Shown here: positions 10,246 to 55,644 of the stretch, in pieces
Layout: the number at the start of each line of letters is the position of its first letter
Numbering within the stretch: the stretch's first letter is position 1
Assembly (NCBI GenBank): GCA_017621525.1
Contig: JAGASX010000011.1
Span: 112,111 to 176,110, forward strand
Source of the DNA: Clostridia bacterium
Lineage (GTDB): Bacteria > Bacillota > Clostridia > Christensenellales > UBA1242
Direction of reading: 5' to 3'
DNA: 64,000 bases
Translations under genes and position numbers: made by a program
The notes under the pieces: generated by a model
What the model was told of the DNA's origin: nothing
The model's input: only the letters and a program-made list of their open reading frames with translations
Databases searched by the model: none

Positions 10246-10320
10246 GGCCTCTTGGTCAAGCGGTTAAGACGCCGCCCTCTCACGGCGGAATCAGGGGTTC
10301 GATTCCCCTAGAGGCTACCA
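10246..10320 (+). tRNA. tRNA-Glu (anticodon CUC), CCA encoded
   Basis: A cloverleaf was read by hand. The acceptor stem is GGCCTCT/AGAGGCT. The anticodon stem is CCGCC/GGCGG with loop CTCTCAC. The T arm is AGGGG-TTCGATT-CCCCT. The 3' end is ACCA. The backbone closely resembles Bacillus tRNA-Glu. Confidence 0.9.
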
Positions 10321-47705: not shown

Positions 47706-47734
47706 AAAAGCGAGAAAATCATCTCGCTTTTTTT
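47706..47734 (+). terminator. intrinsic terminator
   Basis: AGCGAGA-aaatca-TCTCGCT hairpin followed by TTTTTTT. Confidence 0.75.
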
Positions 47735-47856
47735 AGGCACGCAAGAATAACACGAACAAAGTGAGTATTTTCTTTAGGGACGCAAGAATAACACGAACAA
47801 AGTGAATGTTTTCTTTAGGGACGCAAGAATACACGAACAAAGTGAGTGTATTCTTA
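47734..47856 (+). repeat. tandem array of three 41-bp hairpin repeats
   Basis: Units start at 47734, 47775 and 47816. The unit is TAGGGACGCAAGAATAACACGAACAAAGTGAGTGTTTTCTT. Each folds as AAGAA(T)AACAC / GTGTTTTCTT, a 10-bp stem with an 11-nt loop. The third unit is a perfect hairpin and overlaps the stop of the 47854 gene. Confidence 0.9.
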
Positions 47857-51551: not shown

Positions 51552-53066
51552 ATGAAAGAAAAAGTATCATCAAAGGGAGAGAAAAAACATATTTCTGCAA
51601 TTTGGCTTATTGCTGTTGCCTTTATTGCGGTGGGGCTTTTGCTGTTTTGCCAATTTTATTTTGGTGATAGCATAAGCAGTAAAACAACCTACTATCAAAA
51701 CACACACATAAATGGTGTGAATGTTTCTGGGCTTACTAGGGAAGAGGCAAAAAATTTGCTTACTTTGCAAATGGAAGAGCAAAAAGAAAATATAAATCTT
51801 ACCCTTAAAAATGGCGGGAAAGAATGGGTGATAAGTGGCGAAGAATTAAGTTTTGTGGGTAATTTTCAGCCAACGCTTGACGAGGTGATTGAATATGGGC
51901 GTGAAGGCAATATTTTCAGCAAAAAGAAAAATGAAAACAAAATAAAAGAAAATGGGCTTTTTGTAAATGTGCCTATTGAGGATATGTATGGCGGTTTTGA
52001 GGGCAAACTTGATACCATTATGGCTGACATTGAAAACAAGCACAAGCGTAGTGAAATTATCTTTCAGCCAAATGAAGAGCAAATGTTTAAATTAAATGAG
52101 GGAAACAAAGGGTATATTGTTTGCCGTGATGAACTTTTTAATCAAATAAATGACGCCATATATGGCGACGGTGAAAAAGTGATTGACATTCCTGTGCGTG
52201 AAATTGTACCTGAAAATAGTTTGGAGGAATTTGTAAGTCAAATTTCATTGCGTGCGACATTTTCAACCGATTATTCAAAATCGGCAAATGACAGAAAGGA
52301 TAATATTCGTTTGGCTTTATCAAAATTTAATGGAATGATTGTTGAGCCGGGCGAAGAGGTGTCTTTTAATGAAATTACAGGCGAAAGGTCTGCATTAAAC
52401 GGATATAAAAACGCAAAAATAATTATGGGCGGAAAATATGTTTCTGGCGTTGGCGGTGGCGTTTGTCAGGCATCAACCACCCTTTATAACGCTCTTATTC
52501 GTGCAGACATTGAAATTTTGCAGGTTTGTCATCATTCTTTGCCGGCAAGTTATGTTCCCCTTTCTTTTGACGCTATGGTAAGCGAGGGTTATGCCGACTT
52601 GAAGTTTAAAAACAATCTTGATACCCCAATTTTTATTAAAACTTTTTGTAGCGATACAAATGCCGTTGTTGAAATTTATGGTCAGCCTTTTGAAGATGGG
52701 CTTTCAATCAGCACGCGGGGCGAACTTGTGAAAATTATCCCTCATGGTGGCGACGACATAATAACCGACACTGATGGGCAATATGAGGACAAAGTGCTTT
52801 ACAAGGGTGAATATTACCGCCTTAAATTCCCACAAGAGGGCTATGAAACAAAGGGCTATGTGCAATACATTAAAAATGGCGAAGTTGAAAGTGAAAAACA
52901 AATTCGCCATGATAAATATATGCCTCAAAACGGAATTATTGTGGAGGGAAGTTCTGCCCTTGAAGAGGGAATGACACTGCCAAACAACTCTGTGCAATAC
53001 ATTGCCCCTCAAAAGGTAACCAAAGAGGCAACAGAAAAGGCAAAAGTACGTTGGGGAATAAATTAA
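51552..53066 (+). CDS. VanW/YoaR-family protein
   Basis: 504 aa with an N-terminal TM helix. It has the VanW core GGGVCQASTTLYNA...HSLPASYVP and a GGAG RBS. Confidence 0.85.
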   Translation: MKEKVSSKGEKKHISAIWLIAVAFIAVGLLLFCQFYFGDSISSKTTYYQNTHINGVNVSGLTREEAKNLLTLQMEEQKENINLTLKNGGKEWVISGEELSFVGNFQPTLDEVIEYGREGNIFSKKKNENKIKENGLFVNVPIEDMYGGFEGKLDTIMADIENKHKRSEIIFQPNEEQMFKLNEGNKGYIVCRDELFNQINDAIYGDGEKVIDIPVREIVPENSLEEFVSQISLRATFSTDYSKSANDRKDNIRLALSKFNGMIVEPGEEVSFNEITGERSALNGYKNAKIIMGGKYVSGVGGGVCQASTTLYNALIRADIEILQVCHHSLPASYVPLSFDAMVSEGYADLKFKNNLDTPIFIKTFCSDTNAVVEIYGQPFEDGLSISTRGELVKIIPHGGDDIITDTDGQYEDKVLYKGEYYRLKFPQEGYETKGYVQYIKNGEVESEKQIRHDKYMPQNGIIVEGSSALEEGMTLPNNSVQYIAPQKVTKEATEKAKVRWGIN

Positions 53067-53092
53067 AAGTGAGGGATAAACCTCACTTTTTT
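53067..53092. terminator. intrinsic terminator between convergent genes
   Basis: AGTGAGG-gataaa-CCTCACT hairpin followed by TTTTTT. Confidence 0.7.
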
Positions 53093-53100
53093 GCTTATAT

Positions 53101-53907
53101 TTAAAATTCAAGATTAAATGCAGGGCGGATAGACATAAGTGTACCATAAGGACGACCAAGAAAATTGCCATCACTTTCGACATAATATACACGAAATGAA
53201 GCGGTGGCGTCAGGAGAGCGAAGCCAAAACATATCATATGTGCTTTCTTCAGAACTCCAATCTATATTCGCCATTACCGATGACCAGTCATCTGAAATTA
53301 TGCCGTTAGTGATTTCCCCACCGCCGACCATCGAATATACTTCTGCTATGCTCATAAGCCAAAGTTTGTCGCTTTCTGTGTTTGTTGTGGTTATACTGTA
53401 AACTTCGTTTTCAGCGTAATTGCTATTCCCTCTATAATAATTCCACCCTATATCAGTATAAAGGCTTGTCATTGAACGTGGAATAATTGCTTTGTATGTT
53501 GTGTCATTTGCAAGGTTTAGGAGTGTTTTGTAATCTCCATTTAAATATGTGCGTATATCGCTTGTTGCGTAATCACTGCTATCTGCATCAAATTCTTTTG
53601 TCTGAGCTACATATGTTTCAAGCACAAATGTTCCTATTCCATTTGTTGGGGCGGTAGTACCGGTGAATCTGTTTCCATCCATTCCCACCAAACGCCATAC
53701 TACAGGAGCGTTGTTGTATGTTCCCATGGTTACGTAAAAGCCATTGCCGTCTTGCTGTAAATTTATTTGTGGTTCAGGTGCGGTGTAGGTTATATCCCCT
53801 CCGACAGTGAAGTCAAGGTCTGCAAGTGCCCATACCCCTACAAAGGTAAGCACAATTGCCATTGCTATAAATGATATTGTTGATAGTATTTTAATTGTTT
53901 TAGTCAT
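53101..53907 (-). CDS. signal-anchored exported protein, DUF6273-like (tentative)
   Basis: 268 aa with an N-terminal TM/signal segment. FWLRSP and IRPAFNL near the C-terminus resemble the WLRS...RPA signature I associate with DUF6273. An AAGGAG RBS lies 7 nt before the ATG. Confidence 0.6.
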   Translation of the reverse strand: MTKTIKILSTISFIAMAIVLTFVGVWALADLDFTVGGDITYTAPEPQINLQQDGNGFYVTMGTYNNAPVVWRLVGMDGNRFTGTTAPTNGIGTFVLETYVAQTKEFDADSSDYATSDIRTYLNGDYKTLLNLANDTTYKAIIPRSMTSLYTDIGWNYYRGNSNYAENEVYSITTTNTESDKLWLMSIAEVYSMVGGGEITNGIISDDWSSVMANIDWSSEESTYDMFWLRSPDATASFRVYYVESDGNFLGRPYGTLMSIRPAFNLEF

Positions 53908-54000
53908 GTTTTAACTCCTTGCGTCAAGGCTGACGCCTTGCTTTCTCGCTCCGAGAGGAAAATTTAACTTTTCACTCTTCACTTTCATTTCTTCACTTCG

Positions 54001-54031
54001 ATTATGCCCCCCCCCATTGCCATTTTGTCAA
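54001..54031 (-). promoter_or_regulatory. promoter with a G9 homopolymer in the spacer (candidate phase-variable promoter)
   Basis: The minus strand reads TTGACA (54031-54026), AAATGGCAAT plus G9, then CATAAT (54006-54001). The spacer is 19 nt. An AT-rich UP-like region lies upstream. The leader to ATG 53907 is about 87 nt. Confidence 0.55.
54007..54015. repeat. C9/G9 homopolymeric tract
   Basis: Nine consecutive C on the plus strand. It is the only long G/C homopolymer I saw in this AT-rich window. Confidence 0.95.
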
Positions 54032-54104
54032 GTGATTTTAACAAGTTTTTTAAAAAATTTTATTTAACCTCCATATTTAAGGGAAGTTATTATGCGAAGT
54101 GATT

Positions 54105-54134
54105 AAAAAAGCCTTACCCAGTTTCGGGGAAGGC
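54105..54134 (-). terminator. minus-strand-only intrinsic terminator
   Basis: The minus strand reads GCCTTCCCC-gaaac-TGGGTAAGGC followed by TTTTTT. The plus-strand side has an A-run only. Confidence 0.65.
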
Positions 54135-54278
54135 AAAAATATAGTACACATATAACGGAAGAGGCTTGTTTGATATGACTGATTTAGCGGAGCGTACGAG
54201 GCGGTCAGCGGTCGCCGAGCGTGCGGAGCGGGGCAAAGGAGCGTCTGCGTTGGTCGAAGGTCAACGCAGGTGCGATAT
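54135..54278 (-). ncRNA. candidate structured small RNA (GC-rich element), speculative
   Basis: A GC-rich block of about 110 nt sits in an AT-rich genome. It contains a perfect CTGCGTTG/CAACGCAG stem. It lies between the hairpin-repeat array and a dedicated terminator. No credible ORF or RBS is present, and no promoter was identified. Confidence 0.25.
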
Positions 54279-54357
54279 AAGAAAACACTCTCTTTGTTCG
54301 TGTTATTCTTGCGTCCCTAAAGAAAACACTCTCTTTGTTCGTGTTATTCTTGGGTAC
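54279..54357 (-). repeat. two copies of the 41-bp hairpin repeat, inverted relative to the 47.7-kb array
   Basis: Units lie at 54279-54319 and 54320-54357. Their reverse complement is TAGGGACGCAAGAATAACACGAACAAAGAGAGTGTTTTCTT. By eye this is about 90-95% identical to the 47.7-kb units. Confidence 0.9.
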
Positions 54358-54405
54358 AAAAAAAGCGTCGCTGGCGGTCTGTGGTCGCCAAGCGGTGCTT
54401 TTGTT
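54358..54405. terminator. GC-rich hairpin terminator after cca
   Basis: An A-run, an imperfect long stem (GCGTCGCTGGCG...CGCCAAGCGGTGC) and a T-run, directly after the cca stop at 54406. Confidence 0.55.
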
Positions 54406-55644
54406 TTATAGATATTTAAGTTTTTCTTGAACTGCTTGTATCAGTTCTGTTTTTTCATTTTGAAGTACGCCATCAAAAACATCACTTAAAAGGCTTTCTA
54501 AAATAGCCTTATATCTGTTTGGTTTTACATTTGGATAGTGCGTTTTTAATGTGTCGCCATTGATTTTAAGGTCTTTTGTTGACACGACAAGGCGGTGTGA
54601 GATGATATATTTATAGAAAAATTGATATTTATTTGCAAGTGATTTTGATTTATGAATTAAAAGCATATAAATTTGAGGGAAATTATCAAAATATTTAATA
54701 AAATATGGTTTATTTTGTTGGCGATTGAGGGCTTCGTAATAACCGCAAAGTATGTTTATATATTGTTCCACCATTTTTTTATTTAAGCCAAAAGAAGTTG
54801 TAAGTATTAAATTAAGATAGTATGAAATTGAAATTGGATTTACAGCATCAATCACATCAATTAAAAAGCCTTGTGATTTATGTTGTACTTTTTTTACCAT
54901 TTTGAATTTCAGTTTTTGGCAATCTATGCCAAAATATTGCCAAAGTGATGCCCTATTGAAGTGTTTTAATGCAGAAATGTATGCATTTTTCTTTGAAACG
55001 CCTTTATATTTGTTGGGGCTATGCAAAATTCTAGTGATTTCATGCACCACGCGTTCACCAGACACATCACAAAGGTTTTCTTTATATTTATATGCGCTTT
55101 CAAGGGTTTTAGGGTCTATTTTAAAATTAAGTTCGCATTGAAAACGGAAAAGTCTTAAAATTCTTACTCCGTCATGCGAAAGCACTTCATCTGGTGTTTC
55201 AACCGTTTTTAACACCCTTTTTTTGATATCTGATACGCCGTCATAAAAATCAATGAGTTGATTTGATTTAATATCATAATAAAGGGCATTGCAGGTGAAA
55301 TCTCTACGTTTGGCGTCCTCTTTTATATCTGTGATAAAAGTTACGCTTTCTGGCGAATGTGCCCCACCTTTTGGGTACACTTCCTTTCTGAAAGTGGTAT
55401 ATTCATAATTTTCTTTTCCGCAAGAAATAAGCGCAGAGCCAAGGGTTTTGCTTTTCACCTTAAAGTTAAATTTGCTGTCTTTAAGCAGTTTTTCAACCTC
55501 GTCAAGTGTAAGAGATGCACATATATCAATATCTTCGCCCTCTATTTCCATAATTTTGTTTCTTATATAACCACCTACAACATAAAGTTCTGTTGAAAAA
55601 AGTTTTGCAAGTTCTTTTAATGCCTTTGGAAGTTCTATTTGCAT
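54406..55644 (-). CDS. cca: CCA-adding tRNA nucleotidyltransferase
   Basis: 412 aa. The PolyA-polymerase head motif is YVVGGYIRNKIM..GEDIDI. RRDFTCNALYYD is also present. Confidence 0.85.
   Translation of the reverse strand: MQIELPKALKELAKLFSTELYVVGGYIRNKIMEIEGEDIDICASLTLDEVEKLLKDSKFNFKVKSKTLGSALISCGKENYEYTTFRKEVYPKGGAHSPESVTFITDIKEDAKRRDFTCNALYYDIKSNQLIDFYDGVSDIKKRVLKTVETPDEVLSHDGVRILRLFRFQCELNFKIDPKTLESAYKYKENLCDVSGERVVHEITRILHSPNKYKGVSKKNAYISALKHFNRASLWQYFGIDCQKLKFKMVKKVQHKSQGFLIDVIDAVNPISISYYLNLILTTSFGLNKKMVEQYINILCGYYEALNRQQNKPYFIKYFDNFPQIYMLLIHKSKSLANKYQFFYKYIISHRLVVSTKDLKINGDTLKTHYPNVKPNRYKAILESLLSDVFDGVLQNEKTELIQAVQEKLKYL

Follow-up and report, generated by a model that had tools for sequence, protein, structure and literature searches.

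Does the run of nine guanines that separates the -35 and -10 hexamers of one promoter in a Clostridia bacterium act as a length-dependent switch for the surface protein gene behind it? The question is raised by a stretch of 64,000 nucleotides (nt) from contig JAGASX010000011.1 (assembly GCA_017621525.1, positions 112,111 to 176,110), referred to below as the window, in which the minus strand from 54031 to 54001 reads TTGACA-AAATGGCAAT-G9-CATAAT, preceded by cac and followed by cgaagtgaag. The promoter stands before the gene of a 268-residue protein with a DUF6273 domain, and it is one of eight copies of a promoter module, each with a G9 or G10 tract at the same place. The parts of the window copy are given here, together with their conservation among the eight copies.

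54032 to 54064, minus strand: AT-rich tract resembling an UP element, aaataaaattttttaaaaaacttgttaaaatcac, upstream of the -35; its core, AAAWTTTTTAAAAAAC, is partly conserved in 8/8 copies
54026 to 54031, minus strand: -35 hexamer TTGACA, a perfect consensus; invariant in 8/8 copies, always with a C just before it
54016 to 54025, minus strand: promoter-proximal 10 nt of the spacer, aaatggcaat; AA....C.AT is invariant in the 8 copies
54007 to 54015, minus strand: G9 homopolymer GGGGGGGGG (C9 on the plus strand), the putative site of slippage, which brings the spacer to 19 nt
54001 to 54006, minus strand: -10 hexamer CATAAT; other copies have TATAAT, TATTAT, TAAAAT or TAATAT, with A2, A5, and T6 invariant

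A first-pass annotation of this DNA, made from the letters alone, had read the TTGACA and CATAAT hexamers with their 19-nt spacer, an AT-rich tract upstream, and the only long G/C homopolymer of the window, and all three readings were borne out. The AT-rich tract (about 54064 to 54032, minus strand) contains a period-12 AT repeat, TTTTAAAAAATT, and the G9 tract is the sole G/C run of at least 6 in the 64,000 bases. The window is 37% G+C and has 12 G/C runs of length 5, none of 6 to 8, and this single run of 9, while the expected number of G/C 9-runs per window is 0.022 from base composition or 0.037 from a first-order Markov model. A/T runs reach a length of 8 at most. A generic promoter scan missed the promoter because it accepts only spacers of 16–18 nt, the range in which the other window promoters with a perfect -35 fall.

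To place the tract in a wider context, all fetched loci, about 220 kb of partly redundant sequence from related loci, were scanned for G/C runs of at least 7. Every such run fell inside the same promoter module, between TTGACA plus 10 nt and the -10 hexamer. The eight independent copies come from two strains of the window species (strain A, that of the window, and strain B, GCA_054265615.1) and from a second species, a metagenome-assembled genome titled 'uncultured Lachnospiraceae bacterium'. They are listed by locus, position, tract, and -10 hexamer.

Window: strain A, cca-vanW slot, G9, CATAAT
L003: strain B, cca-vanW slot, G10, CATAAT
L034: strain A, parA slot, G10, TATAAT
L014:9406: strain B, parA slot, G10, TATTAT
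L014:15234: strain B, jag slot, G9, CATAAT
L005: species 2, G10, TAAAAT
L006: species 2, G9, TAAAAT
L009: species 2, G9, TAATAT

Half of the tracts (4/8) are G9 and half (4/8) G10, which gives spacers of 19–20 nt. The layout is the same throughout, with an AT-rich tract, C-TTGACA, 10 nt, the G tract, the -10 hexamer, and purine-rich heptad repeats, and the invariant positions can be written as C-TTGACA-AA....C.AT-(Gn)-.A..AT. Positions A2, A5, and T6 of the -10 hexamer are the ones that matter most for sigma-A promoters. Because the whole -35 and exactly these three positions are fixed while the remaining -10 positions drift, the pattern is the one to be expected of a working promoter under selection and not of a chance match. 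All eight copies precede genes encoding the same conserved N-terminal membrane anchor. The tract belongs to a repeated, family-wide promoter module and is not a single-locus oddity, a point absent from the first-pass annotation. Genes for SpoIIE and SpoIVA occur in neighbouring loci, which fits a spore-former. Searches elsewhere were negative: no JGI metagenome contig matched the exact flanks with a gap of variable size between them, the family-profile scan of those contigs had 0 confirmed matches, and they added no further strains; the module pattern and the family profile gave 0 matches each in viral contigs, and BLAST of the module against plasmid and phage collections returned nothing relevant.

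The proteins behind these promoters are related at their N-termini. After every tract-bearing promoter, the first 47 codons encode MTKT(F/I)KILS.ISFIA(M/L)AIVLTFVGVWAL(T/A)DLDF.VGG(D/N)ITYTAP, that is, a hydrophobic helix, A-L-A, and then DLDFTVGGDITYTAPEP. This module is 75–95% conserved across proteins with differing C-terminal domains (DUF6273 and LRR_5; P0055-P0067, P0069-P0095), and the N-terminus of the window protein is 85–95% identical to those of LRR_5 proteins. At the nucleotide level, the first 141 coding nt of the paralogs are 70–88% identical, against 52–73% over the rest of the gene; because many of the changes are synonymous, the N-terminal part is kept by protein-level selection and not by very recent gene conversion alone. 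The module is rare, with 43 real clusters among 1.84 billion representative proteins; P0068 (2673 aa, 12 matches to the N-terminal module) was discarded as a low-complexity false positive. The first 47 residues (MTKTIKILSTISFIAMAIVLTFVGVWALADLDF...) contain no Cys, hence no lipobox, and have the A-L-A motif instead. A role as a signal for export or anchoring, specific to this lineage, is possible for the module.

The gene itself occupies 53101 to 53907 on the minus strand, and its product had been described as signal-anchored, in agreement with the structure model obtained here. The AlphaFold model (pLDDT 83) of the 268-aa protein comprises a hydrophobic N-terminal helix (residues 3–29) that a low-confidence linker joins to a globular domain modelled with confidence, which is assigned to DUF6273 (Pfam PF19789; 46.3 bits against a cut-off of 23.5, residues 93–267). 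The sole significant structural or sequence match of this domain was in the IgA peptidase of Thomasclavelia ramosa (9qa6), namely its N-terminal DUF6273 domain, which the family profile also matches. What that domain does is left open in the publication (PMC12402451). The model, and the N-terminus shared with adhesin-like LRR_5 proteins, point to a membrane-anchored surface or interaction determinant as the product, with a surface location that is presumed from this architecture.

How does the spacing of these promoters compare with that of relatives that lack a tract? Paralogs without a G run have TTGCAT-17-TAAAAT (L029), TTGACT-17-TAAAAT and TTGACA-18-TATAAT (L030), TTGACA-17-TAATAT (L031, whose slot is that of L012 in strain B), and TTGACA-17-TATTAT (L007). 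Together with the other window promoters at 16–18 nt, they indicate that the organism uses the usual spacing, to which the G run adds 2–3 bp. The two groups also differ in their neighbours. A divergent XRE/HTH_3 gene lies directly upstream of the tract-less family genes (L004, L007, L011, L012, L013, L030, L031), with the exception of L029, while no regulator gene is adjacent to the tract-bearing copies, whose upstream neighbours are cca, parA, and jag. On this sequence evidence, the family appears to be under two alternative regimes, an XRE regulator or a G tract, a pattern that fits the tract replacing deterministic control.

We favour, with a probability of about 0.6, the reading that the poly-G spacer is a slippage-driven on/off or volume switch of a surface-protein family, a candidate mechanism that we derive from sequence comparison. 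The G run would sit in the spacer of a sigma-A-type promoter that drives lineage-specific, N-terminally anchored surface proteins, with transcription predicted to start at this promoter. Slipped-strand mispairing at replication would add or remove a G, presumably with a high frequency in each population; slippage is known to make G/C homopolymers of at least 8 hypermutable. Each change would alter the distance and the rotational phasing between the perfect -35, boosted by the UP-like tract, and the -10, so that expression would track tract length. At G9 or G10, the 19–20 nt spacer is predicted to make the promoter weak or off, and the loss of one to three G (to G7–G8) would bring back 17–18 nt and with it strong promoter activity; it is also conceivable that G9 is low-ON and G10 is OFF. 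Each tract-bearing paralog would switch independently, which would produce cell-to-cell variation in the surface proteins displayed. The product suits a contingency gene: it is membrane-anchored, belongs to a variable family, lies in slots whose content differs between strains, and is carried on a presence/absence cassette (described below). The locus is likely a contingency promoter, as a good but unproven candidate.

The part of this proposal that the first-pass annotation had already made, an on/off or volume switch at the window locus, gains from finding the homopolymer in the spacer of a strong sigma-A-type promoter, ahead of anchored proteins, at 8 loci in 2 species; what it predicted for the active state did not appear, as the lengths were G9 and G10 throughout, with no 17–18 nt spacer. 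The annotation had also suggested comparing tract length among strains. At the cca-vanW slot, the tract is G9 in strain A and G10 in strain B, the 45 nt on each side being identical bar one upstream single-nucleotide polymorphism, and the two strains are ~97.8% identical over the 8.5 kb that flank the slot. Each assembly contains both lengths, which excludes a systematic length bias and argues against one of platform. Variation in tract length is thus demonstrated but modest.

Several observations count against a switch. Three of three sample assemblies of one strain (ERZ28654807, ERZ28654748, ERZ28655052) have G9 at the window locus, and at the parA slot both strains have G10, though the neighbouring bases differ. 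None of the eight copies has G7 or G8, the lengths that would give the 17–18 nt expected for the ON state. A/T runs of 7–8 differ between strains A and B in ~21% of cases; at a divergence of ~2%, this means that the single G9/G10 difference does not rise above background and is no proof of hypermutability. Poly(dG) tracts are not standard B-DNA, and because of this non-standard geometry the rule that 17 nt equals ON may not transfer exactly. Support for actual switching is weak.

The gene and its promoter are mobile in a way that also bears on how the tract is explained. In a third strain, L017 (Logan SRR28167521, ~98% identical), the alignment to the window stops at 53080 and resumes at 54350, and at the junction, L017 6250–6258, the VanW stop leads directly into the cca terminator. 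The missing piece is the following.

53081 to 54349, no strand assigned: 1.27-kb presence/absence segment, which carries the 41-nt palindromic repeats and the GC-rich repeat modules besides the gene with its leader and G9 promoter

Gene and promoter together form a clean presence/absence cassette between vanW and cca, which the first-pass annotation had not noted. The promoter module is moreover mosaic around the tract: L003 and L014a share the 60 nt upstream of the tract to 100% and the downstream side to only 67%, whereas L034 and L014b share 96% downstream and 70% upstream. In the slot that follows rpsF-ssb-rpsR-rpmE-HTH_3, strain A encodes an LRR_5 protein (L004 3001–3972) and strain B a DUF6273 protein (L013 10001–10816); the two have their N-terminus in common, suggesting that cassettes were exchanged behind a conserved 5' end.

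What, then, other than a switch could account for the tract? An unlikely answer is that it is a fixed cis-element under deterministic control, either a constitutive low-level attenuator or a 19–20 bp spacer, or A-like poly(dG), that needs a DNA-distorting or G-tract-binding activator. The confinement of the lengths to 9–10 in 8/8 copies and two species, and the constant length in the three sample assemblies of one strain, are what such an element predicts, and a 19–20 bp spacer is typical of MerR-type activated promoters. The resemblance to the MerR type ends with the spacer, however, as the operator dyad and the adjacent merR-family gene are both absent (the neighbours being cca, vanW, parA/parB, and jag). 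No dyad-symmetric operator is centred in the spacer; a partial palindrome, TTGACAaaaTGGCAA, overlaps the -35 and is unconserved. Neither a MerR-family gene nor any other regulator gene lies beside a tract-bearing copy. Keeping a run this long constant would itself require continual slippage, and strains A and B do not agree in length, with G9 and G10 both tolerated beside near-identical flanks.

We consider it rather improbable that the tract is a by-product of cassette recombination, a junction or a hitch-hiker with little effect of its own on expression. The mosaic structure around the tract, the presence/absence segment that carries gene and promoter, and the truncated and inverted module relics upstream in L003, L014, and L034 would all be at home in this explanation, but a neutral G9–10 run should decay and shrink, yet it is uninterrupted and exactly placed in 8/8 copies, and the absence of other G/C runs from these genomes argues for selection. 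A sequencing or assembly artefact, or chance, can be given hardly any credence. Homopolymer lengths can be miscalled, and all the records examined are metagenome assemblies; against this, the tract recurs in at least 4 independent sample assemblies and an NCBI genome, at 8 loci in 2 species, and the genes are intact in both strain assemblies, with few indels between strains A and B, all in intergenic A/T runs. A chance origin would have to contend with an expectation of 0.02–0.04 per window.

A slippage-driven switch in this position would have well-described counterparts. Tracts located in promoter spacers control the expression of porA and hif, and in porA changes of one nt shift the spacing and hence the transcript level (PMC3899988). 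The promoter of Neisseria meningitidis porA, a surface-protein promoter of the sigma-70 type, resembles the present one in having a G homopolymer within its spacer and in the range of tract lengths (~9–11), but porA is a single locus of a Gram-negative pathogen, whereas here the module is repeated before several Clostridia paralogs, has a spacing of 19–20 bp, and is known from sequence alone. The full-ON length of porA is G11, which corresponds to a 17-bp spacer. In Bordetella pertussis, a poly-C tract in the promoter region of fim2 and fim3 sets the spacing of promoter elements and controls surface-appendage genes; that tract (~13–15 nt) lies between the site of the activator BvgA and the -10, while no activator site is evident here. 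Campylobacter jejuni likewise has an AT-rich genome in which G/C runs of at least 8 are nearly absent outside contingency genes, with G9–G10 as the typical lengths, although its tracts are nearly all coding and act by frameshift, whereas every tract described here is in a promoter spacer.

The closest parallel in family organisation is the vlp family of Mycoplasma hyorhinis, which gives combinatorial surface mosaics (PMC4198240). As here, vlp is a multigene family of surface proteins with a conserved 5' region, comprising promoter and N-terminal export signal, and a divergent remainder. Each vlp gene has its own spacer homopolymer and can switch independently of the others; in the present family, only a subset of the paralogs has such a tract. 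Citti and Wise are said to have described, in 1995, a poly-A tract in the promoter spacer of each vlp gene. The vlp genes are clustered, encode lipoproteins with a lipobox and internal repeats, and use poly-A, in contrast to the genes studied here, which lie scattered beside housekeeping operons, lack a lipobox Cys, encode DUF6273 or LRR_5 domains, and use poly-G. The family may, therefore, work like Vlp but is not a Vlp member, since the lipobox cysteine is missing. Taken further, and only tentatively, the parallel would imply Vlp-like combinatorial surface variation in spore-forming Clostridia, in which one anchor is joined to interchangeable ligand-binding domains under XRE or poly-G control, and the modules recombine at or near the tract and move between slots; this would be the first family of promoter-spacer homopolymer switches in walled sporulating Firmicutes.

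Gut anaerobes also control surface and signalling genes stochastically by other means. The invertible promoters of Clostridioides difficile and gut Bacteroides achieve what is proposed here through recombinase-driven inversion between inverted repeats, whereas the present loci have neither conserved flanking repeats nor a nearby recombinase. For clostridia, a 2025 review of phase variation covers invertible promoters and no other mechanism (PMC11868660). In targeted literature searches, we found no description of a promoter-spacer homopolymer switch for Clostridia or Lachnospiraceae. What is new here is the host lineage (walled, sporulating Clostridia), the gene family, and the dual regime of XRE or G tract; the mechanism itself is the classical spacer-homopolymer switch. 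If the tracts do switch, the contingency-locus strategy of Neisseria, Haemophilus, Campylobacter, and Mycoplasma would extend to uncultured gut Clostridia, and a lineage-specific anchored family (DUF6273, LRR) would be flagged as variable determinants of host, phage, or community interaction. The motif TTGACA-N10-G(9-10)-TAnnAT, combined with a lack of other G/C runs in the genome, offers a simple signature for mining metagenomes and read pile-ups.

Other structures that might explain the promoter region were considered and set aside. Consensus motifs of SigB, SigK, SigE, and SigH were compared by eye, and none fits all 8 copies. In a 17-nt register, the -35 would be GACAAA, with 2/6 consensus matches. 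Reading xxCAAT as the -10, with transcription starting inside the G run, fails in that position 2 is never A. A G-quadruplex was dismissed by reasoning, a single G9 run being too short, and an inverton was rejected as the only inverted pair in the window is 13 nt, 85% complementary (53988–54000 and 54095–54107), and absent from the other copies. No site-specific recombinase is adjacent, and no conserved inverted repeats flank the promoter module.

Between the promoter and the gene lies a leader in which, 3' of the -10, cgaagtgaagaaatgaaagtgaagagtgaaaag... is followed by a hairpin, the ribosome-binding site AAGGAG, and the ATG at 53907. The features of this part of the cassette, down to the terminator, are as follows.

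53967 to 53997, minus strand: purine-rich tandem heptads (about RAGTGAA, 4–5 copies) at the start of the leader; Tandem Repeats Finder period 7, 4.4 copies, weak score
53921 to 53936, minus strand: small hairpin GCGTCA-gcct-TGACGC (GCGTCAgcctTGACGC), directly 5' of the ribosome-binding site
53915 to 53920, minus strand: ribosome-binding site AAGGAG, 7 nt before the ATG (53907)
53101 to 53907, minus strand: gene of the DUF6273 protein, 268 aa, membrane-anchored or secreted; codons 1–47 (53767 to 53907) are the conserved N-terminal module
53065 to 53090, minus strand: bidirectional terminator hairpin, common to the convergent VanW gene, from a sequence scan

The leader agrees with its earlier description in each respect. 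A length of about 87 nt had been given, and a transcription start near 53994, predicted 7 nt past the -10 from the geometry of that hexamer only, would yield 87 nt. The reiterated GTGAA(G) motifs are present as the weak 7-nt tandem repeat (53997 to 53967), and the hairpin does abut the ribosome-binding site (53936 to 53921). RAGTGAA heptads occur in 4–7 copies in the leaders of all module copies, with numbers that vary among paralogs, which gives the regulatory region a further simple repeat besides the G tract. Of the family leaders examined, about half have a hairpin of another sequence immediately 5' of the ribosome-binding site. A riboswitch or attenuator was dropped, since the fold of the whole leader is no better than those of shuffled sequences (z = -1.2). 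Rfam gave no family at threshold in the leader or the intergenic region, its sole match in the window being a tRNA at 10246 to 10317.

Some further observations concern the DNA around the cassette. On the plus strand, an open reading frame of 81 aa (54166 to 54411), annotated by ENA as a gene of 78 aa, crosses the GC-rich repeats in antisense orientation; its product is of low complexity and rich in Arg/Ala/Glu, and it is probably no gene. The repeats themselves are reiterated GC-rich hairpin modules in leaders and upstream regions (window 54110–54270; L006 300–610; L014 9450–9590 and 15290–15510; L029 9262–10000). One type consists of CCTYCCC-loop-GGGRAGGTG, a second hairpin, and then GGAAGRGG, and the other of GACGCTCCGCT...CACGCTCGGCGACCG; the motifs, which had no Rfam match, resemble Shine-Dalgarno and anti-Shine-Dalgarno sequences. 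A 41-nt tandem repeat is found in 2 copies at 54279–54360 and, in the opposite orientation, in 3 copies at 47732–47856, both arrays being intergenic and just past terminators, and one of them at the edge of the 1.27-kb presence/absence segment. The repeat looks like a REP/BOX-type element, and its unit, AAGAA(T)AACAC-gaacaaagaga-GTGTT(T)TCTT, is imperfectly palindromic.

Fragments that recall the promoter module were also seen. In the window, the minus strand at 54089–54104, AATCACTTCGCATAAT, lies 67 nt upstream of the actual promoter and resembles a collapsed version of it, with aatcacTT fused to CATAAT and the spacer and tract gone, though this could be chance. In L003 (2815–2850), L014 (9330–9365), and L034 (9655–9690), an inverted copy of the -35 and spacer (GCCATTTTGTCAAG) lies ~40 nt upstream of the -35, beside a palindrome of the G4-CA-C4 type (GGGGTGCCCC in L003), and farther upstream in the same three loci there is a truncated UP tract with TTGAC. 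These inverted and truncated pieces look like relics of a head-to-head duplication of the module.

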